From Blasia pusilla (taxonomy: Eukaryota): a stretch of 64,000 bases of DNA. Of the stretch, positions 1-34,652 are shown one piece after another. The position numbers were made by a program, and so were the translations under genes. The notes beneath the pieces were generated by a model. The model had not been told where the DNA came from. It was given only the letters and a program-made list of their open reading frames with translations, and ran no database searches. The stretch lies in the NCBI GenBank assembly GCA_050084515.1, contig CM114271.1:14756001-14820000 (forward strand), in the 5' to 3' direction. Each line of letters starts with the position of its first letter. Within the stretch, counting starts at the first letter, position 1.

Positions 1-397
1 CTCACGATATCTCCGCATCAACTGACCGATATGTCGAGATGAGACTCTCTAGGCCGTCTCATCTCGCTCCACATACATGTATCTCCGCACAGGAATACCG
101 GTCTGCAACACTGCAGCCAAACCAGTGCTAATCCCACAAAAGAGATCTAACACACAAATGCCCTTCGGCGGATACTGCCATACAATGGGTTTAGTATCCA
201 AAGGGAATACCCCAACAAGACCAGAAATAGGAGTCCACCATGGGGCCTCATCTTCCTTGCGAGGTATAACAACCTCACACCAAGCCTCCTGCACTAGGCG
301 ATCAGCCTCTTGCCATAGTGCACCGCCTAAACTCCAAAGTGGCACATCCAACAATGAGGATGCCACTACTGCAAAACTAGGGACCTCCTCTACCTCC
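1..397 (-). pseudogene. Gypsy pol segment: linker plus start of a DNMT3-like C5-cytosine methyltransferase domain (continues off the window)
   Basis: ORF 49..501 has C5-MTase motif I (VLDLFCGISTGL) and motif II (YMYVERD). It is colinear with 60374..60877 and joins ORF 12705..12941 in frame once the 398-12711 insertion is removed. Confidence 0.85.
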
Positions 398-505
398 GGG
401 GGTTGGTATTTTGACAGGAGAGAGTAAGAGAGGAGAGGAAGAGAGGAAGAGAGGAGAGTCTCTCTTAAAAAAAAAAGGCCAAATCCGCCTCCTCTCTTCA
501 AAACT
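398..505 (+). repeat. Left terminus with GA-rich subterminal inverted repeat
   Basis: GGGGGTTGGTATTTTGACAGGAGAG followed by GTAAGAGAGGAGAGGAAGAGAGG, which is inverted relative to CCTCTCTTCCTCTCCTCTTACCGC at the right end. Homologues at 51136-51246 (reverse) and 61599-61650. Confidence 0.85.
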
Positions 506-1339
506 TTTTGACATATTTGAAATTTTTGTTTGCTTTAAAATTCAGGAAATCTTTAGAAGAGAGTATTTAGTGGTCCACATTTGGCCCTAAGAAAACCTCC
601 TCTTTCTTGGGGGCGAGAAAAAAGGAGACATCATAAGACCACCCTAAACATTTTTCCATCACTCTCCATGTGAGCCTAAGTTTCTTAACATTCCCTGTCT
701 CGGTCAACAAAAAGCAGTGCCCTTGGTATTTTTGTTGGAGGACCACCCGGATGGGTACCTCTCTTTTTGCAGGTATTTTTTCCTGCATTATGGCCTCCCC
801 TAAATTTCCCCATAACCAACTTTCTGTCGGTTATGAATGGTGTCTGCTCAAGATCAACTTTCTGAAATGTGAACAAATCAGATCCTAAGGCTGAGAAACC
901 GAGAAGCTGCACCCCTCCCAACCCGTAAGAAAGCTCACCATAAGAAAGGAAAAGATTTTTAGAAGTGATTTTCTTCCATCCTGCACCCACGACGATCTAA
1001 CGGGTTGGGAATCCGAAATGGCAATCCGACAGGTAGTAGGAATCCTGCATATCTTAGACAAGAAAAGAAGCCTACAACTGGTTGGACGAATGAAGGGGAA
1101 CGAGCCAAAAGTCAAGAAGCCCGCCACAATGCGTCAAAAGTTGGTCTCACCGGGATCACTCAAGCAGTCAACCTGTCGGAATCCGACAAGTTGCCTGGAA
1201 ATGGTTAAAAAGTTGAAGTGGGAAAAAAACAAAAAGTCGGAATCATACGGGTTGCAGAATTGTAATTCTGAGTATCTAAAAGAACACAATCCACAAGTCC
1301 AAAAACAGATTCCAGCAAACTTTTACAAACACCATTATG

Positions 1340-1700
1340 GGTTGAAAAAATCTCGTCCTTTATTACCTCCGAAGGAACCTCGGAAATGTACATTTCACCT
1401 AGTCTATGATTTCTTCAGCCTCGTCATCTACAAATTTACTCCTAACTCTCCTCGATGACAGTACCAAAGGAATGTTTTGGGATTCAAGTGGCTCCTCTGG
1501 CCGATTGTAGACGGGGATAGAAAATGTTGGCGAATTCGAGAGCCTTGGCCCCCCCCTAGGTACACCATAACGGTCCCATGTAACCTATCTCGAGTCCCAC
1601 CGCCTTCCTAGGCAGTATACCTTGTACGCTCTGCAATGTGACACCCATCCAGTATCAATATCTGCTCCGTCCCCGGTAATACCACTATGGCAACCGCACA
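1340..1700 (+). pseudogene. Small third ORF of the DNA transposon, unknown function
   Basis: LVYDFFSLVIYKFTPNSPR*QYQRNVLGFKWLLWPIVDGDR matches LVYDFFNFIIYKFTPNSPRFVYNKNVLGYKWLL*PIVDGD in the second copy (~48900-49185, minus), with synonymous codon changes. Confidence 0.55.
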
Positions 1701-2788
1701 GGTAGAAGGAATCCAACACGTCTGAGAGAAGAAAAGAAGCCTACGCCTGCCTTTACGAGTTGAGGGGAAGGTGCCAAGGAAGAAGCCCGCTAGATCGCCT
1801 CTTAAGTTGGACCAACAGGAAAGGTCCGATCAGGCAACTGTCGAATCGAATCAGGACGAGTTGCCTGGAGGTGGTAAAAAGGGTGCAGTGGTCAAAAAGC
1901 GAAAAGTTGCAAGGAGGAGAAATCCGACGGGTTGCAGTGGTCATAAAGTGAAAGTTGCAAGCAGGAGAAATCCGACGGGTTGCAAAGTAGAAGTCCGTGG
2001 AGTACATAGACGATCACATTCGAAAAGACAAAAAATGATCAGCAAACATTTACAAGCACCACCATCGATCGAAAAAATCTTCTGCTTTATATCATCTGAA
2101 AAAAGCTCGGAATTGTACATTTGATCTATTCTATGAAATCTTTTGCCTCATTATCAAAAAACTCCCTACTCCAAACGCTGCAGTCAAGCTGGGTAGTTGA
2201 GTTCTTTGAACTCACTCGTCATCGTCTGAGAGCTCTTGCAAAATCACTTTCGGCCTTGCCCTCCCGATTTTGGGAATCGTTGGAAGTGACGATGGAGTGA
2301 CTACCAAGGGTGGCTCTGGAACCGAGCTCGGCCGGTGGAGAGTTGTACGCCCCAACGAGCCTTTCGATTCTCGCCTTTGCCTCCTTGCAAAGGTCAAACA
2401 GTTCCTGCCTTCCCTCGAGGCAGAGAATGTTCGTGCCACTCTGCCAGGCGCCTTTGATACTTGCCCCTGAAAGTCCCACTAAGTCGAACACCAAGTCACC
2501 CGGCCTTGAGCAGAGCTCGATGAGCGCTTGCATCGTGGTGGCGACTTTTCCCTTCCTCCTAGTGGGGTACTATCTTGCATGTAAATTTCGGGGAATTGTA
2601 CAAACTATCTAAGTGTACCCATCGAGCATGGATCCACAGGATCCTGGATCTTGAACACCGGAAATTGTGCTCGGGCGAACGAAGCAATAGACGAGGAGTG
2701 GTCCATCTCAGTAAATCAAAGACGTTGGAAACAATGTCGAGAAACTAAAGAAGTCGCCTTGAAAAATTTTCAATAATCGACTTTGGAT

Positions 2789-3156
2789 CAACTCCGTCGG
2801 AGTCCGGCGGGTTGTTTTGTTCGGACCAACCGCCGGAACCCGGCGGGTTGCGATTCACAGGTTTTCCCGGTTGATTTTGGTTTTGGATGCAACCCGTCGG
2901 AAGGCGACGGGTTGGTGGCCTAGAGCAGCCCATGCTCGCCTAAGAGCAACCCGTCGCTATCGACGGGTTGCATCCAAAACCAAAATCAACTGGGAAAACT
3001 CAGTAATCGCAACCCGTCGGGTTCCGACGGGTTGCAGATACACCGCAGTTTTCCCTGTATGTGGGAAAGATGCAACCCGTCGGAAACCGACGGGTTGCTC
3101 TCAACCGAGCATGGGCTGCTCTAAGCCAGCAACCCATTGCCTTCCGACGGGTTGCT
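2789..3156. repeat. Intronic palindrome array (7 units, ~60-bp period in the right part) with foldback
   Basis: GCAACCCGTCGG-n-CCGACGGGTTGC variants at ~2789, 2827, 2888, 2946, 3009, 3071 and 3129. Confidence 0.9.
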
Positions 3157-5249
3157 CACAGACAAAAAAAACCCAGATTGACTCTCATTATACACATCAT
3201 TAAAATATAATTGAAATTATAGTACAGGAATCGTCGCGGATCGGAGTGGGTACTCGTTTTTTATGATCCACGATTGTGCCGTTTTCCACTTTAGCGACCT
3301 CTTGACGCACTGGAGGTTGAAGAGCTCGTCCTCGCTCCCTCTAGTCAACACCAAGAAGCAGCCCCTGTCACTCAGATAGGCGTCTGCAAAGCAGTACAAA
3401 AGTGCAATCTGGTCATAAGTGAGCGGCACATTCCACTCAGGTACCTCGTCCGACGGATTCTCACCCCAAAGTCGCAACCCCGAGGGCAGATCGGCGATCA
3501 AGAGATCCACCGCAACCTCTTCGACCACTCCATTCACCGTCCACGCAGCGTGCCCATTTCGTTGGAGCTTCCGTCCCAGCGTTGTCAATTTTTCGATGGT
3601 CGGTGTCGACGCTTGAGAATCGAAGCTCTTCACTCATCCAAGAAAGGAGTGAATCAAGGAGGACGCTTGTCCGGGTCGTTGTTTGTCTGTGTCTTCCCAA
3701 GGATGATGGGCTGTATTCTCCTTGGGACAACCCGGGCACCTCTCGCTTCCGCTTCTCCCTAGCTTGGGGACGGCTTGTCGGGGTTTCTATGACCTCAGAT
3801 TCTGGTGGCGTTTTTTTCGCCGAGGACCTAGTCCGACCCTCTCTCCCCGCTCGTCCGGACGATTCCGCCTCTGGCCTTGAATCTTCAGCCTCTCTTTGGG
3901 AAGACTTGGCCTTTGAATTTTTCCCTCCCCTCGCCTTGCCTTTGAGACCTTGTGGATTTGTCTTTGTCGTCAGGCGGACCTTGGAAGCCAACTCGGTGTC
4001 TCGTGGGCCTGCTTCTTCTGCATCTCCTCCGAAGAAGTCTTCTTTGCCGGACGAAATTGGGGATGTCGTCTTGTCTTGAGGCCTTTGCATCATGAAGCAC
4101 TCGTAAGTCCTTATCCGTGATGTCTTGTGGTCGTTGAAGTCGAGCCAAATGGGGCAATTCTCCACCTCCCAATCGGACATGTCTTCGCCCCATCTCCACG
4201 TCGTACATGGAGAATGTCTCGCATCCGGCGGCGAAGCCCACAACTTCAAGGCTACCGGTAATTTTCCCCACGCACTGCGTTCTTACATCGACGAGGTACC
4301 AAGACCATCCGTTGGGCAACTTTTAGTCGAACAGATCGCCGTCTGCTCCTGTAGATCTCGCTTCTTCTTCGCTTGATCCCGTTTGTTCCCCTCTACTTCT
4401 TCGTCAAGCTCTGCCGAGGAGGACGCAAACCTTGAACATGGTCTTGAAACCTGAGTTTTTGGTTGGCTTGTCCCGGATGTCGCCGAGCCAAACCTCAAAA
4501 TCTCCGAACTTTCAAGGTTTGCTTCGCGGAATGGGCTCTAATCTTCGAACTCCGCTTGCAGGCACCGCCCAAAGACGGACTTCTCGATTACCGATTACCC
4601 GCAACGCCCCCAGAACGACCATTCGCATAGCCAATGCGAGATCATCGGATCGGACACACCGGAGGATGGTGTGCCGCCTCTTCCGGGCCTCTCGAGCCCT
4701 CGAGATCGATTTTCATCGGTCGTATCCTCTGAACTCGCTTATCCCGGATAACGAAACCGATGCACGCGATCCAAATGACACTTTCTCCCAATCCGACCAT
4801 GCGGATCTTCATCCCTCTTCATTTGGCGCTTGATAATCGCTTCAGCTCCTTGTAGAACTCCGGACCAAGTTCGGGTTGAGAATCTTGATGTATCGCGCAT
4901 CTTGCTCGCCGTGTATTTCGTTGCAGATCATCGCAGCTTGATGAATTTGGCGCGCTCAGACGCAGACACCTTCTCCCTCCGCTCCTGCTCCAGTGCAGCG
5001 CTTTTCTTCGCGTCCTATATCTTCGACCAACAAAGGATGGTTACGGCTGCATCTTGAGAAATAAACTTGTTTGCCCAAGTTTTCTTCTTAATCTGAGCAC
5101 CCTTTGCAAGCATCTGATTGACGAGGGCATTGCCCAAGAACCCCCTGTACTCTCCCGGGTGCGTCGTAAGCACCTTCCTCACCCGATCGCAGTCCTGGAT
5201 CCAGTGGTGGGTGATATTCCCCTCCGATATAATCCTGGACATCCAAACT

Positions 5250-5968
5250 CAACCCGTCAGGAAATTACATGGGTTCCTCCAACCCGTCGGACTCCGACGG
5301 GTCGTCACAGCTCAAGGTCGGATTCTAGCAACGAGCTAAATGATGCAACCCATCAGAGTCCGACGGATTGCATTCAGATTTGCTAATGCCTGGTAAGAAA
5401 ACCGTCGGAGTCCGATGGGTTGCTCGATAGGCCGCCTTGTGAGGGTGTTTTTTTAAGAATGCAACTCGTCGGACTCCGACGAGTTGCTTGAGTGACTGCA
5501 GGTTTAGAAGGTTTTTTCCCCAAAGCAACCCGTCGAGTCCGACAGTTGCTTGCCTCGGCCGCTTTTTCCCCAAATCAACCCGCCCGAGTCCGACGGGTTG
5601 ATTTCGCCAAAAATAGCGAGGCAAGCAACCCGTCGGACTCCGGACAGTTGCTTTGGGAAAAACCTTCTAAACTCAGATCACTCAAGCAACTCGTCGCCGA
5701 GTCCGACGAAGTTGCATTCTTCAAAAACATCCTCACAAGGCGCTTTGTCGAGCAACCCGTTGACTCGACGGTTTGCTTTGGGCCAAAAACTAGTTAAATC
5801 TATGTTCAATCAAACAAGTCGTCGGAGTCCGACGAGTTGCAATCTTAAAAAAACATCCGAAAAAGCGTGCAGTCCAGCAAGCCGTCGGAGTTCGACGAGT
5901 TGCTTTCGGCAAAAACAAACCTAACCCATTCATCAATCGAGCAACTCATCGGAGTCCGACGAGTTGCG
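5250..5968. repeat. Intronic palindrome array (~13 units) with a ~375-bp foldback
   Basis: Repeated CAACYCGTCGGAnTCCGACGRGTTG. 5399-5574 is the inverted copy of 5601-5774. Confidence 0.9.
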
Positions 5969-7456
5969 AAAGTGTTAAAGATACTCACGTGTTCATGGCA
6001 TGCATTGCCATCTCCACCGTCGCCATGTGATGAGGGTATGGGTGAAGGACCACTGCCTTCACGCAAAAATGTGCCTCCAATGAGTTGGGCCGCTCCTCCG
6101 CAAACTTGGTCCACGCCATGAACCTATGATTTCCATCCCAGATGAAGAAATGCAGATTCCTCATCCAGCTGAATTCCGTGCCCTCAACTTGCCTTCTAAA
6201 GTCCTGGTCTCGCATCCTCCAGAATGTGTCGAGCTTTTCCAAGTCCTCCTCGGTAACCAGAGCTTGGGTTCCATGCTCGTCGTAAGGCTAAACATAGAAG
6301 GGAGGAAAGATGTCGACGTAGGATGCTGTCGCCGCCGATTTTTTTAGCTTCGCGATGTCCTCGACGGACTGAATTTCGTAGGACGTATTCCATTGTCCGC
6401 AATCGGCAGAGTGGAATCCTCGGGGCATTGTGGCCCTCCATGAGTGCCATCTGCTTTACCACCTGTCAGAACTAGGACAAGAGGAATAAGCTACACTGAA
6501 ATCCCAATGAATTGCAATTCACATAATTAAAAAAACCCAGAACCTCTCTTACCCGCTCGAAAATGGGGTCGGTTTCTTGACCAGCTAACTTGTCTGAGAC
6601 AGAGGCTGGCAAATCGACTGGGAACTCGTTGATCCGATAGAGGTCGATGTCCTCCGCCGGGCTTGGAGTCGAGAATGACCGCTCTCCGGCTTCTTCGGCC
6701 ATGTCCACCATCTCCACGCTGGCGGTCCTCATGACCTCGTCATCATCGATTTCAACTTTTGGCGTTTCCACTATGTTGATTGTGTCCCCGGACTTCGTGG
6801 GGGACATTTCCCGCATCTCAACACTTGCGGTTGGACGGGCTGGGCTATCGTCAATGGCTATCGCTTTTTCCCTCCTCGCTTTAGCCAATTCTGCCCTCCT
6901 CACCGACGCGTCCAGACGCTTCTTTTCTCTCTTTTCGTCGGCGATCCTTTTCTTCAAGGCCTGCGACGTCTCGGCCTCTGCGTTCTGTTTATCTAGCGCC
7001 TCTTGAACACGTCTCGCAAGAAGCACTTGGTTGTGCATCTCCGCTTCCCTTTCCCGCTCCTCGATTTCCTGCTGCCTAATTTCATTCACCGAACGAGGCC
7101 CAGGAGAAGCTGATGCAGGAGTCCTAATGGACTTCGGAGTGAAGCTCCCAGACTTGTTGGCTTGTGATTTTTTCCTCGTCATTTTTTCCGGAAATGCCTC
7201 CACCTATGTCCACGACGAATCCCTTGATCAGTCACCTTGTTGATGTCGAGATGGGAGCTTGAATCGCCTTGATGGTTAGCTCGAATCGTCCCGCTATCGC
7301 TCGGTCGAAGCGTCTCGCTCTCGTTCCCTCCTATCGACTCGCGATGTGTCGCCGTGTGAAATGCCCCTTCGTATCTGATCAGCTGCTGCACGGGAGAGTG
7401 AGGAGTGAGGAATGAAGATCGCGAAATGAGAAACCGGAAATGAGCGATTTCTGCCC

Positions 7457-7464
7457 TATTTATA
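7457..7464 (-). promoter_or_regulatory. Candidate TATA box of the ParB-MTase gene
   Basis: TATAAATA on the minus strand, ~275 bp upstream of the ATG at 7182. Confidence 0.5.
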
Positions 7465-7552
7465 CTTTTCTAGCCGTTGGGCTGACCGTTGGGTCCCGTC
7501 GTCCTTTCGACGGTGACGTGCCGGATGTTACGGAAGTCCGGACGTGAAAAAT

Positions 7553-8270
7553 GGCAACCCGTCGGAGTCCGATAGGTTGCCCGGCTCCGCCATCCTGGGT
7601 ACGTCACCACGTGCACGAGCAACCCGTCGGAGACCGACGGGTTGAGCGCCTCCGTCGTCTTCAGAAAAGAACGCGAGGTACCCGCGCAACTCGTCGGAGA
7701 CCGACATGTTGCGCGCCTCCGCCATCCTGGGTACGTCGCCATGTGCACGAGCAACCCGTCGGAGACCAACGGGTTGAGCGCCTCCGTCATCTTTGGAAAA
7801 CAACGCCAGGTAGCCACGCAACCCGTCGAAGACCGACATGTTGCGCGCCTCCGCCGTGTTTGGGACGGGAACGGGACGTATCTTGGGCAATCCGTCGGAG
7901 ACCGTTGGGTTGCACGCTTCCCTCATCAAGGGTTAAGAACGAGGGCTTCCCGTGCAATTCGTCGGAGTCTGGCTGGCTGCACCACAAGGCGAGGCCCTTG
8001 CGCAACCCGTTGGAGGGCGATGGGTTGCACGCCTCGCCGTCTTTGGGCTAAAAGGCGAGGTACCCGCGGAACTCGTCGGGAACAGACGGTTTGCACGCCT
8101 CCGGCATCTTCGGGCAAGAAGGATCGGTATCCGAGCAACTCGTCGGAGAGCGACGGGTTGCTCGCTTTGACAATGTTTAGCAGAAGCGTGCAACCCGTCC
8201 GATGCCGACGGGTTGCAGGCTTCGGTTAGCTTCGGGTAATTTTTGAGTTACCAGGACTCCGACGGGTTCC
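7553..8270. repeat. Intergenic palindrome array between the divergent genes (~12 units, ~66-bp period, A/B higher-order repeat)
   Basis: Units at ~7554, 7619, 7686, 7751, 7818, 7887, 7954, 8002, 8069, 8134 and 8189, with alternating related spacers. Confidence 0.9.
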
Positions 8271-8483
8271 AAGTGTGATGCGCAACCCTTTGCTTCCCAA
8301 ATCCGGTAACATATTGCAACAGAATTGAATGTGTTACAGAATTGGATCCATTGTGTCAGACAATGTCACCCACCGAATTCATCTTGTCAGTAAAAATCTG
8401 TCAAGAGTATCTGTTTCCTATTCACTATAAATTAAATATTCTCATTCTCATTCTCAGTCTCCTCCCATTGGAATCTTCTTGGA

Positions 8484-11400
8484 ATGGATAATTATGTTAA
8501 GCTCACTTGTGGCAGTCATCTGGCGGCCCTTCCTCAATCGGAAATCATTCGACCCCAAGCTCGTTAGTCTTTCATAGCAGTGGATGAATTTTTTTGTCTG
8601 TTCGATTTCTTCTTCAAATTGGAACCATCTTTGTATCCAAAGATGTTAGGGTGGACGGTACGGAAGACATAATAGGTGAGACGGTCCAGCCAGTGACCTC
8701 AGACCGTAAAGTATGGAATCTCCTACCTCTACCAAATGGTCAATACAGAGTTTACGGCCCCCCGATCGTCTGTTTCCCAAGTAGACGGTCTAGAATTTCC
8801 TAGTGCTCCGAGCTCACGTTTGCAACTCCAAGCTCTGCAGATCCGGCCGACTCCAACCGTGACGCTCAGAACAATTTTGTTTTTCTGAAGAGATTCCGGA
8901 TGTTATCAACCTCGTGATCTGCTTCGGGCACCAATCGGGCCTCTGTCCGCCTACGTTCCTCTTGCGAGTATCGGCAATAGTTTGCTTTGTCTCGCCCTTG
9001 AAAATGTTCAAGCACATTCTTGTCGACGATTTAGCCGCCCCACGTCGATGGTAATTGCATTTTTGAGTTGCCTCCACTTGTCGCTCTGCTCAAAAGAAGG
9101 ATGGAGGACGCCTGAAGGGTATGGACAGAAAGTCTGATTGTCATCGATGGTGCAGGCTTCAACGGACAGTGCTTCAATTCCAGATGGTCCTTGGATTGTC
9201 TCCCGCCGCCAATGCGTGGGAGCCTTGGAGTGTAGAAGTCCAGCATGCCCGTATCTAGAGCGCAACGGGCGAGTCAATACGTCGCAATTCCCTCCCAAGA
9301 ATGCAGAAACTCCATACGAGGTCGGTGCCACCATACCGCCGGAGGCCATCGATGTCCTCATTGTCGCATCGCCTTCTACGTTGGAGCGTGTCCCGCATAC
9401 ATATTTTTCATTGTCCACGACTTGGGCTCCACGTCAGAGTATACAAGGCTGGCTGTCCATGTTGGCTCCCACACTCATCCTGTGACCGATGCAATTCAAA
9501 GACACATCAAGGAGGATGTGGCGAAGAAAGTAGCCGAGGTCTCTGAGAAACTCCGGGTTCAAAGCCGGAGTGATCAAGCTCACAACGGCATCACAAATTT
9601 GTGAACAATTGCTTGGAATCCCTGGACAGGGCGAGATCACGGCGGTTGAGGAGAAACAACTCTGGGAAAATCTCGCATTTCTCGCTGATCCTGAATGCGT
9701 CAGATACGAGTTCTAGATGGAAAGACGGCCGAAATGGATGCCATCGCCAAAATCAAGGCCAACTCCAAATTTCCATTCATTCAGAGATGGCAGTTCATGG
9801 GCCAAGGAGGTGAGGGATCCAGGGCCTATGTCTTCAAAATGTCAACCACAGGTCCGTCGAGTGGCCTCGATCTTATAGATCGAATGTGGGAAGGGGAAGA
9901 TCTTTACGGGAGTTGGGTAAGCTTTGATATTTGCTACAAAGTGCTGAACGGATGGTTGACGATGGGTGCTCACATTTATGACCATGTGGAGAAGGGACTC
10001 AAAACTATATTTGTCTGTGAAGTAAAGGCAGAAGACGTTGGCAGTTTGAAGATGTGCTGGTTACTCTTATTGGAGGTGGTGAAGGAAAACAAAAGGCCAC
10101 CTCCGGAAATTTATGGGTTCATGGCGGACAATGCACAACCTGGGTGGATTGCTATCCGGGAAGTGTTATGGGGTGGAGAGGTTCAACCGGAGAGGGAAAG
10201 GTCGGATGCTTTCCATTGGCCACAGTCTGTGACCCGGTTGACCAAATCTTGCATCAAGGAGAATAAGAGGACAGAGCATGTCACTCTACTCCAACGCTGC
10301 AAGGACAGAAAAACCTTGAAGCAGGCCATGGAATGGCAGGAAGAACTTCATGGGTGGTGGAGGAAGCATGCGATTGAGGGGAAGTACAAAGAGTTGTGCT
10401 CTTGGTTGAGTTGGTGGTATGCGTATGAGACAATGGGGAAACTTCATGCGGCAGGTGAGTTCACTATTTTGTCTTGTCAAGCTCACGTTGAGAATTTTTG
10501 TAAAGTTGTAGCTCAGGATGAGAAGCGTGGGAATTATATGGATTTCAAACCCAAGAAACCAAGCAAGCTGTCGGATGCGACGGGTTGCCCGAGTGTGCAA
10601 CCTGACGGAAACCGACGGGTTGCCCAAGGGTGCAACCCGACGGAAACCGACGGGTTGCATCCAGATGTTTGGTGCAACCCGAGTGTGCAACCCGTTGGGA
10701 TCCGACGGGTCACAGAGTCGTTCATGGGATGCCTCGGGCCTGCAACCCGTATGGTTCCGACAGGTCGCTTATTTCTTTGACTCCTGAGTTATTTTCGTTC
10801 CCTTCTAACATTGCCATCGTTGCAGGGATTGAACGTTCATGAAAATGCTCTCTGCCCCAACACAAGTGGAGCACAAAGTGTTCATTCCTCTTGGAGGTCG
10901 TCACAAGCATGCCAACGAATTTCACTTGTGGAGGCATGCCAACAAGACTCGGCAAGAGCAATGCTACAGTCTGCAGCATCCCATATCTTTCTCACAAAAG
11001 GCATAACAAAAGGAAAAGGGCCGTCGATCTAGGAGCTCTATGTCAGGGCGGCTGTGAGATCTTGTGATGAAAAATTGTATGTCGAAGCCTTCAACCGGTG
11101 CGTAGCTGGAACTCCACTTGAGCAAGACGTGTACACATAGGTGGGGATATTTGTGGGCGGGTTTCAAGACGTCCCATACAGATGGTGGTAGAGCAGTCCG
11201 AACGAGACGCGTGGAGACCAGATAAGTATCTTGACTTCAGGTAGGTGAAGAGGCAGCATCGAGGAACCAATCCGGTGATTGATTTGGATGAGGAAATTAC
11301 ACCGCCCAGGTATTCGGGGACCCCGGACCCGTCCCAAATCCGTGATGGAGTTACTTCTCCAAAATCAGTGAATGTTTTATTTCAAAAGCCCTCCGTTGCT

Positions 11401-12328
11401 GGAAGTTCGCAACATCCTGTCACTGGGGTGGTTCAACAATATGGGATTCCGATAATGGAGGTGGATTGCAACCTAAAACGGTGGCTAAAACGGTGGCATA
11501 TATCTCGGAGCAACCCAGGACGTGGACCCACATGCGGGGTAGGATCTGATGGCATTAGGAGAGCATGCGGCACTTTCCTAAATAAGAATCAGACAAGGAT
11601 GGACGACCTCTGCACTGGTTTTGGGGACTCAAAACCTTTGATTGTTTCACGAGGACCAGGGGATCAATTGAAGTACTTCTTCTGCCCAAATGAATCTTGC
11701 GCTTTCTGGAAGTCTTATCCGGCTGCTATTGGAGCTCCCGGGAATACCCCCACGATTTGGCCCATTGCCGCACGCACGAACTACACTCAAGACGAAGTGG
11801 ACAATCTTACAAGTGCCGGTTTCAGACTCGTAGACGGGGGAAGTTTGGAGCATGTTCAGACGAGAGACCTTCGTGATTTCAGTATTCAACCCAAGATTGA
11901 TATCAACATGTACCCGGAGAAGGTGGATGATCTCAATCCATTATTTTTGTTTGAGTCTAGAAATGGGGTGAAGAGAAACAGAATGTGCAGGCCAACGGTG
12001 GAGAGAGCAAAGCGAATTGCAGAAAATGGAGATCATCACCACAAAAGATGTCTTGAGTGGCAATGGAATAGGAAGGATGTATTGGGTCAGGAACAACACT
12101 GTAAATTCAAGTGTCACAGGGGTGTATATGGTGCACATCTGTTGCTTTCCCACATGTTCATGTGATGACTTTGTCCAAAGAGAGACAAGTGGCAAAAGGT
12201 ATTTCCCTTGTAAGCACATGTACTATGTGTTGCTGGTAGTTTTAAGAGAGTCGGAGGTAGGAGTAGAAATCCACCAACCAATTCTGTCCCTCAAAGAAGT
12301 TTGAAGTATTTTAAACAAACCACTTTGA
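8484..12328 (+). pseudogene. MULE-type DDE transposase with N-terminal GCM/WRKY-like zinc domain and C-terminal SWIM finger (frameshifted)
   Basis: GCM-like RRQCVGALECRSPAC...CPHC...CPAY...HTHP (9200-9480). DDE core WVSFD...GFMADNA...DAFHWPQS (9695-10450). Intron 10455-10825. PNTSGAQSVHSSW. SWIM PTCSCDDF...FPCKHMYYVL (12150-12235). TATAAA at 8426. Start codon uncertain. Confidence 0.8.
10562..10770. repeat. Palindrome array inside the transposase intron (~5 units)
   Basis: TGCAACCCGACGGAAACCGACGGGTTGCA at 10631 plus variants at ~10565, 10596, 10686 and 10741. Confidence 0.85.
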
Positions 12329-12711
12329 GGATGCAAAATGAGGTTTTAGATTGTACTTTTATTTTTTTCTCAACCTTCACTTTGAGCTTGAACTCTATTC
12401 AGCCCCGGGAAAATGACAGATTTTTCCCAGACCTTGGATAGAAAAAGTGATTGGTTCCACACTTATGATTCCACTAATTTTTCAGTTTTCTAAATTTTGT
12501 GCAATTCGCAACTCGTCGGACTCAGAGGGGTTGCCAAAATATGGAAGAGGAAAAAAAAACTGTGGGACTGCTTAATATATGAACAAATAAGTGCAAAAAA
12601 TTTCAAACAAAATTTTCCTCTCTTCAACCCAACGGAAACTCTCTTCAATAAAAAGTATCTATTTCGGTTGACCCTAGTTTCCTCTCTCCTCTCTTCCTCT
12701 CCTCTTACCGC

Positions 12712-15202
12712 ACCTCCTCTACCTCCTCATGCACAGGAGAATCCATAGTAGAAACATTACCCTCCAAAAAGTCTCTTGGCCAAGTGACTACTCCACTAAA
12801 ACCAGCCACAGATGCTAACACCGTTGGGGAAAACCCTCCTGATCGAGCCCCATAAATAAATCTCACAGGAACTTGGCTCAGACGTCCATACCCGGATTGC
12901 CAACCAGGTCTATAAGACGTTGTCTCAGTCCAGTAATCCATCTAAAAACCCATCGGGTACAATACTTCTCCTCCAACTAGTACATCCTACGACTCGGCTG
13001 ATGTGACCACTGCAGGTACTCCCAACCGGGAGCTATCAGTCGCATGATCTGGTCTCAACTGTACAGAAAAGTTCTCCCGTGTCATGAATTGAGACCTATC
13101 ATTGGCTCCTCCAAGTGATGTTTGAATCTGGAATGGGCAAGGCTCAAGCTCTGACCTCCGAATATCCAAACCAATACATGCCGCCTTTCCCAACATCAAA
13201 GGTTGGGCACCAGAGTCTAACAAGACTCTATCTGGTCTATACACCTGTCTTGTAGGACTCACCAATCGGAATATCCCACTCTGGTTGTCCAACATACATA
13301 CACCAAGTGTAAGCCTCTCACGATCAATGGCTGGCCGGGCTGGTAATGCATCCATCTTCGCCGCTGCTGCATGCCAAGTAGCACTGGTACTCAATGCTAC
13401 ACCTGACATAAAGGGTCGCTCCACCGCAACACCCTCATCCACCTCAGCACCTGTAGCAGTAACACCCCTACGTTCACACAACGTGGCTACTAGCTGAAAT
13501 ACATGAGCTAAGTCAACTCCTAAAGCCACCAGCTCCGTGGCCGAAAACAATTGGGATCCCAACACTGAAGTTGCCACCCGCAATACTACACTGAATGCTG
13601 CATCCGTGTCTACTACACGCGATGTAGATGCCTTAGTCCCCACTGTCTGCTCAATAGGTTGCGTAGGAACCATGGATGGAGTCCTAAGCACCTCAGACAA
13701 CAAGAATGACTGGGGAAGCCTAGCCTGCCTCCCAACCTCACCCCTCTGTGGGTCCAACTCCACAGTAGCACCACGTGGCTCTGACGCTCGAGTGGCTCCT
13801 CTCGTAACCGCAGCTGATGCCTCAACCTGTGGTAGGAGTAGCCACCGTAGGCTCTCCAACCACTGATCCACCTCTATCACCCCTACTACCTCTACCACCT
13901 CGGCCTCTCGGAGCTACTCCACCATCGCCGCGGCCTGCTCTCAACTCTGGATGAAGATCAAAGCAACGCTCTCGAGGATGACTTGGTCTCCCGCAATGAT
14001 CACACTGAGTTGGGGCCGACTGAGGCCCATCCTCCAAAGTCCGTCTCCCATCCTCTTGGGGACAAAACCTCCTAACATGATCACCTCCACATGTCCAACA
14101 TGATTGTCCTTGCTGCGGGGCAGCAAATGAAGGCAATGGTCTCTACGCAAGTGTCCCTCTAGGACTTGACTAAGGTCGTGTGTACCCCCCATGACTCCCA
14201 CTACTACTACCACCACCACTACTATGAGACTGTGAGGTGGGCTACTAAACACGAGAAGTAGTAGTTGTATCCCTACTGAATGCGGATGTCACTACTCTCA
14301 CCTTCACCATGTTAAGCTCAATCTTCTCAGATAGAGAAAACACATGGGTCAATGTGGGTGAATCATCACTCATAAGAGTAGCATCATGTACGGCGCAACT
14401 CTATGTCCAAGATCCCATACCAAAACTGGGCTGCTTGAGCCTCAGTCATACCCTGGGTAACAGAAATCAAGCGTCCCATACGAATGTATGCCTCACAAAG
14501 ACTCTCACCAGTCTTTCGCTCAAATTCTTGAAGACTCCTCAACTTCTCTGTCTTCACTCCCTGATAGTTCTTCTTCAACCTCTTGAAGAACTCTACAATC
14601 AGGCTGAACGATGGTGGGACACTAGTACCCCCACTGGTACCTCCATGGATACCTCCACTGGTACCCCCACTCCGGCTTGTACTTGTACCACTCAACTTTG
14701 GGTTGGCTGGCATAATAGGAGCACTACTACCAATACCACCATGGGTGATAGACACATAGCCTAGAGACCAATATTGTCTCCACGCCTCAATCTCAGCAAC
14801 ATGGTCCTTCCTAAACTCATGGTAATCATCCATGGGTGGTCCCTCCAAGTGCTGAAACAACCCCTTCCAAGCCAAGAAGGGTGTAAACAACGTGGCGTTT
14901 CGCAACATCTGCATATCACACCACGTATCAAACTCCTGCATGAAGTCCTCCAACTCAATGGTGCCCACTGCACCCGAGTATCGTCGTGGGCCCTTCATGG
15001 CCCCATATATCCCGTCCATATCTCAAATCAATGGAGCTACAACACTCGATAACAACGTAGAAGACTCGGTGTTTGGAACACCCTCGTCCTCCTCTTCATC
15101 AATCGTCGGAAGTGGACAAGGTAGCCGATACCTCAATCCACTCCGTGTAAAATCACCACTGTCTGCACCACGGTCTCCAACCAGACCACCAGACAGCTCC
15201 AT
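12712..15202 (-). mobile_element. 5' half (gag, two zinc knuckles, protease) of the DNMT-carrying Gypsy split by the DNA transposon
   Basis: Gag 15019..14384. CWTCGGDHVRRFC and CDHCGRPSHPRERC. Protease VLLDSGAQ (~13220). Homologous to 60900-63300. Confidence 0.85.
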
Positions 15203-16498
15203 TGAGCCCTCTAGTTCTAGCAAGAAGCTTTGTAAGACTAATTTTCCAATGCCATTCACAGGAATGGGGCGTTCTCGGAAAGTGAGCGAGTTTCTAACGG
15301 AACTCGAACTTTATTTCGAAGCGCAAAGGCAAAAAACAAGACAAAGTGATTGTAGCGGTCACGTTTCTGAAGGATCACGCTCTCCATTGGTGGACGGCTC
15401 ACCGTAAAGAACATCTAGGTCGTGGGAAAACGTTGAGTTGGGAAGATTTCAAGGAGTTGATTGGGAACCGATTCACTCCGGAATATCAAGAGTATCGCGA
15501 TGGCATGGAGGTGGTGAGGTTGCGCCAGAGTGGATCACTTGGCGCTTATGTGTGAGAGTTTAGTGCGCTCATGAGTGCACTTTCCACGGATGAACATACA
15601 AAAAAGGTGATCTTCCTAAGTGGGCTCAAACCGAGTGCCGAAAAGGCCTCTTTTCGATGCCTCACATCCCCAGACGGCGGATCTTTTGAGACTAGCAGAG
15701 CGGATTGGGGACGATGAAGTCCAACACCCGAAGCCCTTTGAGACAACAAGTTTTTCTAAGTTACCGAAGAACAAAGGGACATCCAAGAGGGTTTGGAATG
15801 GGGGTGAACGCGACCACGTAGGGTCTCTTGCCCCAGCAGCGAAACGAGTGGAACTCAACGCGAAGCCAAAGGGGCCACTGTTTACGAAGTCAACGAATGC
15901 CAAAGTGATTTGCTACAATTGTGGCGAACCCGGACATATGGCTAAGGAATGTGTTAGGCCCAAGGTTAATAAACCGAGTATGATTGCGTTTGCCGCTAAG
16001 CATTTATCGGAGGGAGATCTAGATACATCTCTACAAGTCACCAAGAGAACGCCCAATTTGGTTTACCTAGGATCCAGGATCGCTAATCACGATGTGATGT
16101 TGCTCGTTGATACAGGTGCTTCGCACTCATTCTTGAGTCCGAGAATCGTGAAAATGTTGGGATTACCAACCACCAAGGCGGATGAACCCATTAGGGTAGG
16201 ATTTGCGGGAGGCAAGTCACCAGACTTCAGATCTGGTTTTAGGGCTAGTTGTGAGATGCGGAGTATTTGAGTTGAAGGAGAATTTTACAGTTTGCGACAT
16301 GGACGGTATCGACGGAGTCTTGGGGAACACGTTCTTGGATGCGTATGAGGTGGAACTGAGGCAAAGACCTTTGAGGTTGAGTGTCTTAGTTAACGGCAAA
16401 TGGACGGACGTCAGATTGGTTAGTGAGGTGCCTAGGAAGACGGAGTTGGTGAACGCCATCATGAGGAAGAGTTTGGCCGAGTTAGAGGAAGGATTCCT

Positions 16499-19210
16499 TT
16501 GCTTGATGAGACGAGTAGAGGATTATGCAAGCGCGAGATGCAGAGATCAGAACTCAGCTTCAAGGGGAATCCTGAAACACTCAAAAGAGTTGTGAAAGAA
16601 TTTGGAGATGTGTTGACTAAGGAGCTTCCGACTAAGTTGCCACCACATAGGGCGGTTGATCATAAGATTGAGGTGATATCAGGATCTCAACCACCGTCAA
16701 AAGCACCATATAGGTTGAATCAAGAGGAACTTGCTGAGTTGAAGAAACAGTTGGGTGAACTCCTAGAGAGGGGTTACATCCGAACAAGCAAGTCACCTTA
16801 TGGGGCGCCCGTCCTCTTTGTAAAGAAGAAGGATGGGAAGTTGAGACTCTGTGTTGATTATCGGGCGCTGAATAAAGTGACGGTAAGGAATAACTATCCT
16901 CTACCAAGGATGGATGACCTCTTTGATCGATTTTCGGGTGCCAAGTATTTCAGCCGGATTGACCTGAAATCAGGATATTATCAAATTCGGATTGCCGAAG
17001 CGGATGTGGAGAAGACTGCGTGTAGAACGAGATACGGTTCGTTCGAGTTTGTAGTGATGCCTTTCGGTCTTTGTAATGCGCCTCCGACGTTTACCACTTT
17101 GATGAACTCCATCTTTCATAAGGAGACGGATGAGTTTGTGATCATCTATATAGATGACATACTCATCTATTCGAAAACACTAGAGGAGCACGCTCGACAT
17201 TTAAGGACGGTGTTTGAGAAACTTAGGGTGAACAAGCTGTATGCGAATACGGATAAGAGTGAGTTCGGTTTGACAAAGATCAAGTTCTTGGGGCATGTGG
17301 TTAGTGCGGATGGAGTGAGTCCAGACATGGAGAAGGTAAGCGCGATTTCTGAATGGGAACTGCCTTCCACCGTGAAGGGGATGAGAAGGTTCATCAGAGC
17401 AATCCAATTTTACCGGACATATATGAAGAACTTTTCGGGAATAGTGAAACCTCTCACAGATTGGACCGCAAAGTTTGCCAATACTACATGGACCGAGGAA
17501 GTGGATAAAGCGTTCAATCGAGTCAAAGAGATCCTCTTGCAGGAACCAGTTCTGAAATTGCCCGAGTTTGACCAACCGTTCAAAGTGCACACGGATGTTG
17601 GTGATTTCGCGATTGCGGGAATGTTGGTGCAAAAAGGGAGACCTATAGCATACAAAAGCAAGAAGCTTAGCGACACCGAAAGGAGATGGCCTACTCATGA
17701 GAAAGAGTTGTTTGCGGTGGTTCATTGCTTGAGGAAGTGGCGTCACTATCTGGGACTTCACAGGACTCGAGTATTCACCGATAACATATCGCTCAAGTAT
17801 TTTGAGACCCAGGATCGCGTGAGGCCAAAAAAACTTTGGTGGCATGATACCTTGGCGTTGAGGAATGTGGAGCTAATCCACAAGCCGGGGAAAGACAATG
17901 TCATTCCAGATGCGTTAAGTCGCAGGGATGAGCACATGCCATCGACGACACAAGTGTTGAGAGCAATGTTCCCTAATGAAACAGACCTGGAAAGAAGGAT
18001 TCGTGAAGGATACATGAAGGATGCGCAAGCGAGGGAGTACCTTGGGAAGTTAAAGCGGGGCGAGAAGGTGGCCAATCTGAGTTTGAGACATGGCTTGCTA
18101 AATTTTAAGCAGAGCAGGATCTATGTAGGCCAAGGCAAGCTATGGACCAAGGTGTTTGTGGAATGTCATGATGGACCTTTGGCGGGACACAAAGGGGAGA
18201 AATCCACTCTTGCTGTTTTGACCAAAAGGTTCTTCTGGCCCAACATGAAGGAAGATGTTGCTCAATATGTGAAGACGTGCGTGACCTATCAGGCGAACCG
18301 CGTTTCTTATGCGAAGAAACAAGGCTTACTTCATCCTTTGCCAATCCCGGAGGGACCCTTGCAAATCATTAGCATGGATTTTATTACGAGTCTTCCGGAA
18401 TCTGAGGGATACAACGCTATACTTGTGATAGTTGATCGATTTAGCAAGTTGGGGAGGTTTGTGCCGATGAGAGAGTCTGCGACGGCCTACACGACTTCCC
18501 GACTATTCCTGGATGGTTGGTGGCGAGCGCACGGATTGCCTAGGAGCATTGTGTCCGATCGAGATCTCAAGTTTACCAGTGCCTTTTGGAAACATCTATT
18601 CAGGAGGTTCCGGACCAAACTCAGCTTTAGTACGGCCTTCCATCCTCAAACGGATGGGCAAACGGAAAAAGTAAACTTGGTTGTAAACCAATACTTACGG
18701 AATAACGTGAGTGCGGACCAAAGAGATTGGGCCAAGTGGTTAAGTATGGCTGAGTATTGTTACAACTCAACTAAGCATTCTGCAACCGAAGAATCTCCAT
18801 TTCTTCTGGCGTATCAAAGGGAACCAGAAGGGCCTCTTGACTTAGCTCTTTCGAAGGGCGCTACATTGACACACACTTGTCAAGCAACGGCGGAATGTTT
18901 GGAGCTGCCAAACAAGTTCAAGATTCACCCGACTTTCCATGTGTCATTATTGAAGAAGTATCTTCAAGACAATGTGCGTCCGGAGCGAAGGAGGATGTTG
19001 AGACCACAACCGGTCATCAGAAATGAGGAACCAGAGTTCGAGGTTGAGACCATTCTACGTTCTAGACGTAGAGCCACCAAGTACGAGTACTTGGTCAAGT
19101 GGAAAGGCTATCATGTGAAAGAGGCAACTTGGATTGCGGAGGCGGATCTTGAACATGCACAAGAAGCATTACGTGACTTCAGATGGATGCAAGAAAGGCA
19201 CATGCGTTAG
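16499..19210 (+). CDS. Gypsy pol: RT, RNase H, integrase, chromodomain
   Basis: LCVDYRALN, MPFGL, YIDD. Integrase SMDFIT, IVSDRD, HPQTDGQTE. Chromodomain FEVETIL...YLVKWKGY...ATW. Apparent deletion of the GPY/F region near 18890. Confidence 0.95.
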   Translation: MLDETSRGLCKREMQRSELSFKGNPETLKRVVKEFGDVLTKELPTKLPPHRAVDHKIEVISGSQPPSKAPYRLNQEELAELKKQLGELLERGYIRTSKSPYGAPVLFVKKKDGKLRLCVDYRALNKVTVRNNYPLPRMDDLFDRFSGAKYFSRIDLKSGYYQIRIAEADVEKTACRTRYGSFEFVVMPFGLCNAPPTFTTLMNSIFHKETDEFVIIYIDDILIYSKTLEEHARHLRTVFEKLRVNKLYANTDKSEFGLTKIKFLGHVVSADGVSPDMEKVSAISEWELPSTVKGMRRFIRAIQFYRTYMKNFSGIVKPLTDWTAKFANTTWTEEVDKAFNRVKEILLQEPVLKLPEFDQPFKVHTDVGDFAIAGMLVQKGRPIAYKSKKLSDTERRWPTHEKELFAVVHCLRKWRHYLGLHRTRVFTDNISLKYFETQDRVRPKKLWWHDTLALRNVELIHKPGKDNVIPDALSRRDEHMPSTTQVLRAMFPNETDLERRIREGYMKDAQAREYLGKLKRGEKVANLSLRHGLLNFKQSRIYVGQGKLWTKVFVECHDGPLAGHKGEKSTLAVLTKRFFWPNMKEDVAQYVKTCVTYQANRVSYAKKQGLLHPLPIPEGPLQIISMDFITSLPESEGYNAILVIVDRFSKLGRFVPMRESATAYTTSRLFLDGWWRAHGLPRSIVSDRDLKFTSAFWKHLFRRFRTKLSFSTAFHPQTDGQTEKVNLVVNQYLRNNVSADQRDWAKWLSMAEYCYNSTKHSATEESPFLLAYQREPEGPLDLALSKGATLTHTCQATAECLELPNKFKIHPTFHVSLLKKYLQDNVRPERRRMLRPQPVIRNEEPEFEVETILRSRRRATKYEYLVKWKGYHVKEATWIAEADLEHAQEALRDFRWMQERHMR

Positions 19211-33614: not shown

Positions 33615-34435
33615 TTAATCACATATGAACTGATTCTCGCCAGTGAGAAGAATCGGTAATCAAGGCCTTGGTATGTTTGCCATCGTGCTCGAAGTACAGT
33701 GTTCGAGTACTTAACCTCATATGACTATGGCATCGATGATACCCCTTTTACTTCGGCCTTGAATACCCCTCATTTGGGACTATTATGTGTTTTTTTTGTC
33801 TGCAGGTTGCGTCACGCAGGGAGCTCATCCGAAATTCAGCATATCGCTTAAGGTTTGAGAATATCGATATGTAAATTCACCTCAATAGATTTCAATTAGA
33901 TTTACTCTAGAGAAACCCTTGACCCCAAACAGATGGGTGCGACTATGTACGATGTCCAGGACACCCGAATCATCGTAAATATATAGCCATCCACAGCTAC
34001 AATTCTGTGACTCCTCGTTGATGACCTTGTCTTGTTGAGTGATTGGTCCTTCAAAACACGCCCATATTTGGGATACAACCCCACTACCCCCACCCCCCGA
34101 TCAGGCGTGTACGTAGTACGTACCCCCACGAAAAGGGTATCCTCGACGATTTCATCTCTGCTCTAAGTACATACAGAAAGAAATCTAGTTACGACTCTTA
34201 CGAGGTTCTCGAGAAGTCCCTGGTAAGGTCACAGAAGGACGTCAGCAAGGGCAATTTCAAATCCCATTAACTCGTCTAGTCCTAGCTTTCTGGACCGGTG
34301 ATTATACGTAGGCTGCTGGTCGGGAACCATCAGTAGAAGTAATCGCACCTGGCACACGACTATTAGGAATAAATATAACCGTTAATAGAAACCCATCGGG
34401 ATTCGGAATACAGAAGAGGGGGGGGGCATAGGGAA

Positions 34436-34652
34436 CAGTGCTCGGCAAGGATTTTTATGCATACCGGTAGCTTTTCGAGAGAATTCTCAAGGTAGTCGGT
34501 AATTTCTCCATTCTAGCCGGTTTTTAAAAAATTTAGCAAAGAAAATTCACTTTTCTCGTCGGCAATTTTCCAAAACTTTCAGATTTGATCCGGAAATCGC
34601 ACGTTCTCAACCGGCTGCTTTAACAAAGAATGCCGGTTCTTGCCGAGCATTG
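34436..34652. mobile_element. hAT-like MITE (217 bp)
   Basis: TIRs CAGTGCTCGGCAAG / CTTGCCGAGCATTG. Imperfect 8-bp flanks ATAGGGAA / ATAGGAAG. Internal CCGG-rich motifs. Confidence 0.65.

Follow-up and report, generated by a model that had tools for sequence, protein, structure and literature searches.

A putative self-recognition module on a Mutator-like transposon of Blasia pusilla: a ParB/Srx and methyltransferase-like accessory gene with arrays of a CG-rich palindrome

Few transposons are known to carry factors that recognize their own DNA, and in the available accounts of such elements no tested case other than VANDAL/VANC is cited. In Arabidopsis, VANC21 binds a motif arrayed in VANDAL21 (Hiun), which leads to a loss of DNA methylation (PMC5735166; PMC10398659), and the arrays lie in introns, in intergenic or upstream DNA and in terminal non-coding DNA (PMC5735166). 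A hypothetical case comes from red algae, where the giant Plavaka transposons of Bostrychia moritziana are described as carrying the accessory genes PAG2 (PF01555 and SET) and PAG3 (ParB-like and a 2-oxoglutarate (2OG) oxygenase) together with tandem inverted-repeat arrays; in the authors' hypothesis, PAG3 would bind and modify the element that encodes it, and they report PAG-type genes on Mutator, Zisupton and Fanzor-encoding elements as well (bioRxiv 10.1101/2025.02.11.637652). Here we analyze a stretch of 64,000 nt from Blasia pusilla (GCA_050084515.1, contig CM114271.1, positions 14,756,001–14,820,000, forward strand; hereafter the window), in which a 12.3-kb transposon at 398–12717 combines an accessory (cargo) gene, encoding ParB-like and methyltransferase (MTase)-like domains, with arrays of one palindrome. 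The data used were the window itself, public RNA reads and protein collections.

As published, VANDAL21 and the Blasia element are alike in being of Mutator type, in carrying an accessory gene and in having a family-specific motif amplified with the same distribution. VANC is, however, neither ParB- nor MTase-like and showed no similarity in the searches made, its motif is a 9-nt non-palindromic sequence in one orientation rather than a 27-bp palindrome, and its function has been shown, whereas for the Blasia protein we infer one. With the red-algal elements, as their authors describe them, the Blasia element shares its nature as a large DNA transposon, its ParB-like and PF01555-type accessory functions and its inverted-repeat arrays, and the best HHpred match of those authors, 7BNR, ranks 18 in the Foldseek list for our cargo ParB/Srx (sulfiredoxin) model. 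In contrast to the red algae, the two domains are fused here rather than encoded by separate proteins, neither SET nor 2OG domains were found by Pfam in the window open reading frames (ORFs) or in P0074, a cargo relative from Riccia sorocarpa, the catalytic loop is altered, the host is a land plant, and the arrays extend across introns, promoter and ends instead of lying beside one gene; this likeness is drawn from the published descriptions. The original prediction had not recognized the combination as a described system, which has to be revised, as the red-algal Plavaka, Mutator and Zisupton elements are hypothesized to carry a comparable package. To judge from that account, ParB-like and PF01555-like functions with inverted-repeat arrays have so far been reported only for red algae. 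What is new is that a single protein contains both domains, that its gene belongs to a Mutator-like element in a land plant and that it has multi-copy liverwort relatives, which suggests a widespread and functional module. The literature searched, whose supplements may hold element lists, gave no description of this bryophyte transposon family.

Basidiomycete Plavaka/KDZ transposons carry TET/JBP genes, and there are retrotransposons with C5-DNMTs. The Blasia element resembles these in its DNA-modification-type cargo but differs in enzyme class, and we know of no cis repeat arrays described for TET/JBP or C5-DNMT elements. Bacterial and phage ParB–MTase fusions exist; the plasmid MTases nearest to the C-terminal cargo exon have no ParB domain and belong to the plain PF01555 type.

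The element and its accessory gene

The sequence at 398–12717 is best explained as one copy, no longer autonomous, of a family of Mutator-like cut-and-paste transposons in a bryophyte-like land plant. The window is plant-like in character, with a Ty3 chromovirus polyprotein (16436–19210), copia pieces (22–27 kb) and GT-AG introns. A 15-bp direct repeat, ACCTCCTCTACCTCC, is present at 383–397 and 12712–12726, and within it a target-site duplication of 9 bp, TCTACCTCC, is identical at 9/9 positions in the main copy and lies within the 9–11 bp range of Mutator and Mutator-like elements (MULEs). The main copy alone is also compatible with a duplication of 15 bp; 9 bp is best read as the length, with the right end at 12717, because the termini and flanks of a miniature copy point there. 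This miniature (Table 1) runs from GGGG to CCGCTCCTCC, with a CCTCC close, and its flanks, TCCCAACGT and CCCCAACAT, match at 7/9 positions. RNA reads from three runs (27, 10 and 13 reads) join 382 to 12712, skipping 12,329 nt; they represent the empty site, transcribed from expressed paralogues of the host retroelement without the insertion. The inverted similarity of the two ends is weak, consisting of the terminal hexamers (GGGGGT, GGAGGT) and of a purine-rich tract of 27 nt in which there is a single gap. The direct repeat, the empty-site reads and the decayed and miniature copies bear out the mobile unit bounded by a target-site duplication of the original prediction, with its end moved by 6 nt, from 12711 to 12717.

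We searched the window with P0074 (1,207 aa; gene R1sor_027256) using tblastn and obtained colinear minus-strand blocks at 6450–6400, 6347–5991, 5227–4607, 4264–4139, 3651–3247 and 2533–2336 (E values of 3e-18 to 0.012, searched against 5.6 kb). Since these blocks are colinear, the window cargo gene is by its sequence a member of the P0074 family. P0074 consists of a low-complexity N-terminus, a domain with the pattern IPLCRL...WDGNHR...AMHxLN, a helical acidic middle of ~650 aa and a C-terminal N6_N4_Mtase-like domain. A phmmer search with the 100-aa window exon containing IWDGNHR found 71 relatives at E ≤ 1e-3 (best 1.9e-11; 26–48% identity), and all 10 relatives looked up, as well as the listed cluster members, are R. 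sorocarpa proteins encoded on many chromosomes. A second search with the C-terminal fragment P0075 gave 26 relatives, all from Riccia, with PF01555 on record for 4 of them. The conservation of the ~1,200-aa family at 30–40% identity and its multi-copy state in this liverwort argue for a genuine transposon gene and not a captured fragment. In the window copy a change of reading frame falls between 6400 and 6347, a stretch of 52 nt that corresponds to 18 residues, and a further frameshift near 2570 is likely. An in-frame TAG at 6288–6290 was considered as an intron acceptor and rejected, as the protein alignment continues straight across it.

For the N-terminal domain, an AlphaFold2 (AF2) model of the Riccia relative P0018 (185 aa; 35% identical to the window exon) reached a predicted local distance difference test score (pLDDT) of 93.2. 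Foldseek against the PDB returned no match at E ≤ 1e-3; the top match was ParB (6sdk; E 0.03, probability 0.98), followed in the list by Srx, Noc, PadC and KorB. In an all-chain structure search (VIA), 14 chains had Z ≥ 2 and 13 of them were of ParB, KorB, Spo0J or Srx type, with KorB the best (Z 7.8, root-mean-square deviation 2.6, 95 residues aligned) and PadC, Srx and pNOB8 ParB-N at 6.8, 6.3 and 6.1; the 13 include SerK, SbnI, Atu1540, SspE, BrxU, Osa and Dnd, which we take to have the ParB/Srx fold. On the basis of this model we confidently predict a ParB/Srx fold for the cargo N-domain. The alignment behind the model combined the window exon with 55 of the 71 phmmer hits; two false hits caused by repeats, the six proteins of more than 500 aa and eight short partial hits were excluded. 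Among these 56 sequences the N and H of the DGNHR loop are invariant, each of D, G and R is conserved in 90% or more, and the loop fits the GxxR pattern of ParB/Srx phosphate loops (GERR, GCHR, DGQHR). The only recurrent Pfam matches among these members were weak ones to DUF1015 (5/56) and DndB (2/56), presumably ParB-clan families.

Bacterial ParB, KorB and Noc thus share with the cargo protein the N-terminal ParB/Srx fold and a GxxR-type loop, and their sites (parS, OB and NBS) are palindromic and often multiple; they differ from it in that the cargo protein is ~1,200 aa long with the ~650-aa middle and has no detectable sequence similarity to bacterial ParB among PDB sequences or plasmids, where a single hit at E 6 is at chance level. 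Neither the ParB exon nor the ParB-domain profile matched a PDB sequence, and there was no match for the exon in word-index protein searches or a metagenome contig scan, nor for the profile among viral contigs. The ESM Atlas gave leads only, connecting the exon with ParB_N (11% of one cluster), DUF6551 and DUF3723, and the N-terminal MTase exon with N6_N4_Mtase clusters at 0.83–0.84.

The C-terminal domain was approached through its two exons and their relatives. On the last cargo exon, Pfam N6_N4_Mtase scored 13.5 bits (E 0.072), under the gathering cut-off of 26.7 bits. The same exon matched M.RsrI at E 0.13 and, by tblastn, 428 plasmid records (best E 0.04), 22 of the 25 listed being annotated as DNA methyltransferase or methylase, and over 59 aa it shares 37% identity with the C-terminal end of a genuine PF01555 enzyme. 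The N-terminal MTase exon matched nothing among PDB sequences or plasmids. PF01555 was detected at motif I in three of the seven relatives scanned (P0074, 23.7 bits; P0075, 24.8; P0072, 26.2; cut-off 26.7), and a profile of 20 MTase-like sequences gave eight PDB hits at E ≤ 10, seven of which are beta-class DNA MTases (E 0.011–1.6), namely DpnA (twice), CcrM, M.RsrI (twice) and rotifer N4CMT (twice, E 1.6). The profile matches to CcrM and DpnA are colinear and in two parts, with the second stretch following the DPPY position of CcrM, and the order is the permuted one, in which the motif IV region precedes the S-adenosylmethionine (SAM)-binding motif I. The AF2 model of the domain was poor (pLDDT 50.8), and its top Foldseek match was CcrM (E 6e-4). 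A wide structure search with this weak model did not discriminate (best Z 7.7, mixed alpha/beta folds); among the listed matches of at least 125 residues over model residues 25–222, nearly all were beta-class or MT-A70 MTases (Z 5.0–6.6), the exception being DNase1L3. Homology of the C-domain to permuted beta-class N6/N4 amino-MTases is therefore reasonably supported. The fold check suggested with the original prediction returned ParB for the N-domain model and CcrM for the weak MTase-like model, and the predicted pairing of a ParB-like with a beta-MTase-like domain holds at the level of the family, through the Riccia relatives and the structure and profile matches, the window copy itself being broken.

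A palindrome confined to copies of one family

The palindrome is 27 bp long and CG-rich, with the form GCAACCCGTCGG-N3-CCGACGGGTTGC and a consensus centre of A.T in the alignment of copies. Scanning with up to 6 mismatches over the 24 arm positions gave 48 copies in the 64 kb, of which 37 are in the main element (roughly 40 had been predicted), 10 in the decayed copy and the last one in the miniature, with no copy in the rest of the window; 44 of the 48 have a 3-nt spacer. At up to 3 mismatches there were 29 matches, compared with 0 in each of 100 shuffles, and a repeat finder reported 33 copies in 1–14000. Half-sites with up to 2 mismatches numbered 93, with 72 in 0–14 kb, 17 in 48–52 kb, 3 in 60–62 kb and 1 at 34 kb. 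A metagenome contig scan with the palindrome gave no match.

The copies in the main element form the arrays A–F (Table 1). Arrays B and C each separate two of the colinear cargo-gene blocks that align with P0074 and are therefore intronic. The expectation that the palindromes would be restricted to non-coding DNA holds for arrays A–D and F, which are in introns, intergenic or terminal DNA, and is doubtful for array E, which lies within an open frame of 361 codons. Array E is bracketed by consensus splice signals (GT at 10455, AG at 10825). An intron at 10455–10825 was not upheld, as the spliced frame meets a stop after 5 codons, and it is also doubtful because the 'E' of the DDE-like pattern may sit just beyond the donor and the drop in RNA depth is not clear. 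Around array A, a tandem duplication of ~670–730 bp (1018–1443 and 1687–2170; 72–77% identity) occupies non-coding DNA downstream of the cargo gene, one unit holding the array and the other only right-arm remnants (1909–1983).

Arm identity is 79% within arrays and 77% between arrays, figures that are inflated by the choice of copies for their similarity to the consensus. The 20-nt flanks are 35–40% identical within arrays and 24–25%, the random level, between arrays. This contrast holds despite the inflated arm figure and shows that the recurring unit is the 27-mer and no longer unit. As single-stranded DNA, each palindrome would fold into a 12-bp stem of −13.8 to −15.2 kcal/mol. Compensatory changes in the arms were not in excess (82.7% of cells paired versus 82.2% in shuffles; covariation score reached by 57 of 500 shuffles), and for this reason the conservation of the half-site sequence fits a reading of the sequence and not selection for a hairpin. 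Changes of C>T or G>A account for 46 of the 98 departures from the consensus, and the mean number of CpGs per palindrome is 3.2 in the main copy and 2.4 in the decayed copy, which fits decay of methylated cytosines in dead copies.

The centre is GANTC in 21 of the 44 palindromes with a 3-nt spacer (for example 5461–5487 and 61691–61717) and is not a defining feature. GANTC is the site of the beta-class enzyme CcrM, the protein that also heads the structural matches of the MTase-like domain; this may be a coincidence with the extended palindrome GGA-N-TCC. An RNA joint from 5307 to 7555, skipping 2,247 nt, was seen in all three runs (6, 5 and 3 reads) and connects the palindrome at 5279–5305 with that at 7554–7580; it reflects either an exchange between palindromes that produced a deletion derivative or a mis-placement of repeats, the shorter side having only 26 nt.

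Recognition by the accessory protein and competing explanations

In the model we propose, two genes would be transcribed divergently from a central non-coding region, one encoding a DDE/SWIM-type transposase and the other an accessory protein of ~1,200 aa with a ParB/Srx N-domain carrying the DGNHR loop, a helical acidic middle and a permuted MTase-like C-domain in which motif I is kept. Amplification has placed arrays of the palindrome in the region of the divergent promoter, within two accessory-gene introns, on the downstream side of the transposase core and close to either end of the element, and these would provide cis sites for a dimeric, element-encoded protein, most probably the accessory protein. 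Sequence recognition might come from the altered MTase-like module, from a further DNA-binding part or from both, with the ParB/Srx domain acting as a nucleotide-dependent switch, so that the family would recognize its own copies and control or protect their chromatin, comparable with VANC and with the role proposed for PAG3. We assign a probability of about 0.4 to the reading that the accessory protein recognizes the palindromes and that regulation or anti-silencing follows. Mobility, gene architecture, folds and the family specificity of the palindrome are shown, while the binding, the choice of the binding protein and the effect are inferred. A wider conjecture, more doubtful still, is that a self-recognition module of prokaryotic ancestry, made up of a ParB/Srx switch, a repurposed beta-class MTase-like reader and CG-rich palindromes, occurs in giant transposons of red algae and bryophytes, fused or split; in this plant it would bind the palindromes of promoter and introns and keep active copies free of CG methylation. 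If this were true, it would be a second anti-silencing system, mechanistically unrelated to VANC, and the near-expected CpG content of the central 7 kb would be its footprint.

The CpG content of the element is compatible with such a role. The ratio of observed to expected CpG is 0.9–1.37 in 12 of the 14 500-bp windows over 2.5–9.5 kb, the lowest value being 0.78, and falls to 0.38 (501–1000) and 0.16 (12001–12500) near the ends; it is 0.56 in 13–47 kb of the window and likewise 0.56 in the decayed copy. A lineage that escaped CG methylation during its active life would leave such a pattern. Elsewhere in the window, a ratio near 1 occurs in a single 2-kb stretch, 34001–36000 (1.07). In three stranded RNA runs, first mates map to the plus strand over 1–8000 and to the minus strand over 8100–12600 at depths of 0.1–6, the lowest depths (0–0.3) being over arrays B, C and D. 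These strands fit divergent transcription from the region of array D; the reads are few and most are 90–99% alike, hence from other copies. At this low depth, no splice joint inside the element was among the joints listed for the three runs, and loose read ends that were checked as splice sites instead reflected divergence from other copies. Many reads at 1552–1584 (33 nt) have both sides unrelated (13–20 reads per side in runs X19 and X21, 10 in X20), and this segment is apparently a short match to a well-expressed transcript elsewhere.

Several points weigh against recognition by the accessory protein or against particular versions of it. The window provides only one copy of intact length, and the co-occurrence of cargo and palindrome comes from three copies in a single window. 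The cargo copy is broken, the TAG at 6288–6290 lying within its ParB/Srx domain, and high CpG content may result from youth or composition alone. ParB reads parS through its helix-turn-helix (HTH) domain and not through the ParB/Srx N-domain alone, and neither an HTH nor another DNA-binding domain was found in the accessory protein by Pfam or PDB sequence search, which weakens the analogy with parS drawn in the original prediction. At motif IV the window has A-D-L-P-S-G and not (D/S/N)PP(Y/F/W), and its Riccia relatives mostly have D-[LM]-P-[ST]-G, with the two variants D-L-S-S-R and D-M-S-S-G. As DPPY is replaced family-wide, canonical amino-methylation, and hence marking by methylation, appears doubtful from the sequences, and we did not adopt a classification of the domain as an active N6/N4 DNA methyltransferase. 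The substitution of D-L-P-S-G for DPPY raises the question of what role a beta-class MTase fold plays without the canonical catalytic loop.

The palindromes could instead be sites of the transposase itself, used in complex assembly or in the activation of cognate copies, while the accessory protein acts elsewhere. We regard this as unlikely, although it has a precedent in the AtMu1 transposase, described as activating cognate copies in a sequence-specific manner (preprint 10.64898/2026.08.24.746577). The miniature, which depends on proteins supplied in trans for its movement, has retained a single perfect palindrome at a distance of 90 nt from the left end, and the full element likewise has palindromes close to each of its ends (1168 and 12508). 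Against this, 34 of the 37 palindromes lie in the interior, separated from each end by over 2 kb and grouped in arrays of 5–11, which is unusual for end-binding sites, and in red algae ParB-like genes and inverted-repeat arrays are described as recurring with different transposases.

On the unlikely side, too, we place a hairpin minisatellite, neutral or selfish, that no protein of the element would read and that would multiply in non-coding DNA through slippage, unequal exchange or repair stimulated by cruciforms, with the cargo as an unrelated passenger. The array periods of 35–69 bp, the different copy numbers of the two large copies and the stability of the 12-bp stem all suit this explanation, and the RNA joint between the palindromes at 5279–5305 and 7554–7580 is expected from recombination of copies or mis-placement of repeats. 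However, flanks that are unrelated between arrays while arms are 77% identical would require either repeated independent seeding or constraint, and the motif is kept in a subfamily that has diverged by 23% and in the miniature. A passenger cargo is also at odds with an accessory family conserved at 30–40% identity and present in many liverwort copies.

That the cargo marks its own element, as an active N4-cytosine or N6-adenine methyltransferase acting on the palindromes, is one version of the original prediction and now seems improbable. Such an enzyme might, for example, place 4-methylcytosine (4mC) at CpGs and thereby block 5-methylcytosine. The domain is a homologue of the beta-class fold with an intact-looking SAM motif I, the palindromes of the main copy have a mean of 3.2 CpGs, and the GANTC centre in 21 of 44 would presumably be a CcrM-type site. 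Permuted beta-class N6_N4_Mtase folds are moreover described in eukaryotes, for MpDN4MT1a/b of Marchantia and for N4CMT of bdelloid rotifers, as 4mC enzymes (10.1101/2021.02.12.428880; PMC8885841), and the only cargo relatives found are from a liverwort, the same lineage as the Marchantia enzymes. According to these accounts, however, those proteins are host genes with an intact (T)SPPY (TSPPY in Marchantia) and demonstrated activity, whereas the Blasia domain is transposon-borne, fused to ParB/Srx and carries D-L-P-S-G. Motif IV is without its second proline and its aromatic residue in the window and in all aligned Riccia relatives, and no block homologous to P0074 residues 1046–1114 was found in the window. 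In bryophytes, where bacterial-type 4mC is known, the 27-bp site and the defined protein are direct targets for binding and methylome work.

The least probable explanation, a role as RNA hairpins in introns or untranslated regions for splicing control, transcript stability or small-RNA decoys, would suit the intronic arrays B and C, which are transcribed in pre-mRNA, and the stable stems (by DNA parameters), but pairing is not preserved beyond shuffles (82.7% versus 82.2%; 57/500), array D, the largest, lies between transcription units where RNA depth is lowest (0–0.3), and a 12-bp stem is short for Dicer-type processing.

Transposase, further copies and host retroelement

The transposase region is fragmented (Table 1). 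Pfam SWIM on ORF 11972–12304 scored 16.7 bits (E 0.0053), below its 19.6-bit cut-off, and a D..D..E pattern with spacings of ~66 and ~125 residues was recognized by eye only. ORF 9695–10453/10582 had no Pfam, NCBIfam or PDB match at E values up to 10, the MULE domain (PF10551) included, and tblastn against plasmids gave no IS256-type match. 'Mutator-like' is the best label, based on the 9-bp duplication, the weak SWIM match and the DDE spacing, and membership is not proven; of the MULE/SWIM transposase originally predicted, the duplication and the weak SWIM match agree, while a MULE profile match is missing. We are cautious with this label because, according to the red-algal authors, homology of accessory genes once had Plavaka elements mislabelled as MULEs (bioRxiv 10.1101/2025.02.11.637652). 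For the third ORF that had been predicted there is a candidate frame, probably 11245–12165, which cannot be separated from a transposase exon.

Table 1. Positions of the transposon features and of further family copies in the window
Feature	Position	Strand	Basis
Left target-site duplication TCTACCTCC	389–397		Direct repeat; empty-site RNA joint 382→12712; alternative 15-bp reading 383–397
Left terminus GGGGGT..., purine-rich (GAGAGG)n tract	398–483	+	Comparison of ends
Palindrome array A, 2 copies; right-arm-only remnants 1909–1983	1168–1255		Scan; terminal non-coding DNA
Accessory (cargo) gene, pseudogene here	2222–7203	−	Colinear with Riccia sorocarpa P0074, 1,207 aa
MTase-like domain, C-terminal half; motif I F-D-L-V-G-L-S-G 2488–2465	2222–2569	−	Pfam, M.RsrI and plasmid matches
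Palindrome array B, 7 copies	2789–3155		Cargo intron separating the two MTase-like blocks
MTase-like domain, N-terminal half; motif IV position D-L-P-S-G 3492–3478	3247–3651	−	P0074 blocks; second, colinear part of the match to CcrM
Palindrome array C, 11 copies	5279–5967		Cargo intron after ParB exon, donor ACG/GTGAGT ~5990
ParB/Srx-fold domain coding region; D-G-N-H-R 6137–6123	5991–6471	−	phmmer relatives, AF2 model, structure searches
Palindrome array D, 11 copies, period ~66 bp	7554–8216		Between divergently transcribed genes; RNA read strands
Transposase region, fragmented	9138–12304	+	DDE-like ORF 9695–10453; CxCxnCxH (SWIM-like) ORF 11972–12304
Palindrome array E, 5 copies	10563–10768		Within 361-codon open frame, downstream of DDE-like region
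Palindrome F, 1 copy	12508–12534		Near right end, terminal non-coding DNA
Right terminus ...CCGCACCTCC, common to miniature copy	12608–12717	+	Comparison of copies
Right target-site duplication TCTACCTCC	12718–12726		Direct repeat; miniature comparison; empty-site RNA joint
Decayed, truncated family copy	47861–51246	−	77–80% identity in aligned pieces; 10 palindromes; MTase-like block remnant
Miniature derivative, 344 bp, both termini	61599–61942	+	One perfect palindrome; imperfect 9-bp duplication

The full element and the miniature are both inserted in the same retroelement family, at different sites (1–397 and 12718–14300 for the former; 58.7–62.7 kb for the latter). RNA depth over the host retroelement is ~20–39x, compared with 0.1–6x over the transposon. 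This host is a long terminal repeat retroelement, which at 49–534 (minus strand) and in a second, decayed copy at 60374–60892 (minus strand) contains the stretch LDLFCGISTG or LDLFGGINNG between a protease-like region and the reverse transcriptase. Pfam gave no match for this stretch, and its PDB sequence matches, all six of them to C5 DNA methyltransferases (DRM2, DNMT3A motif I), have E values of about 1, so that a retrotransposon-borne DNMT-like domain is possible.

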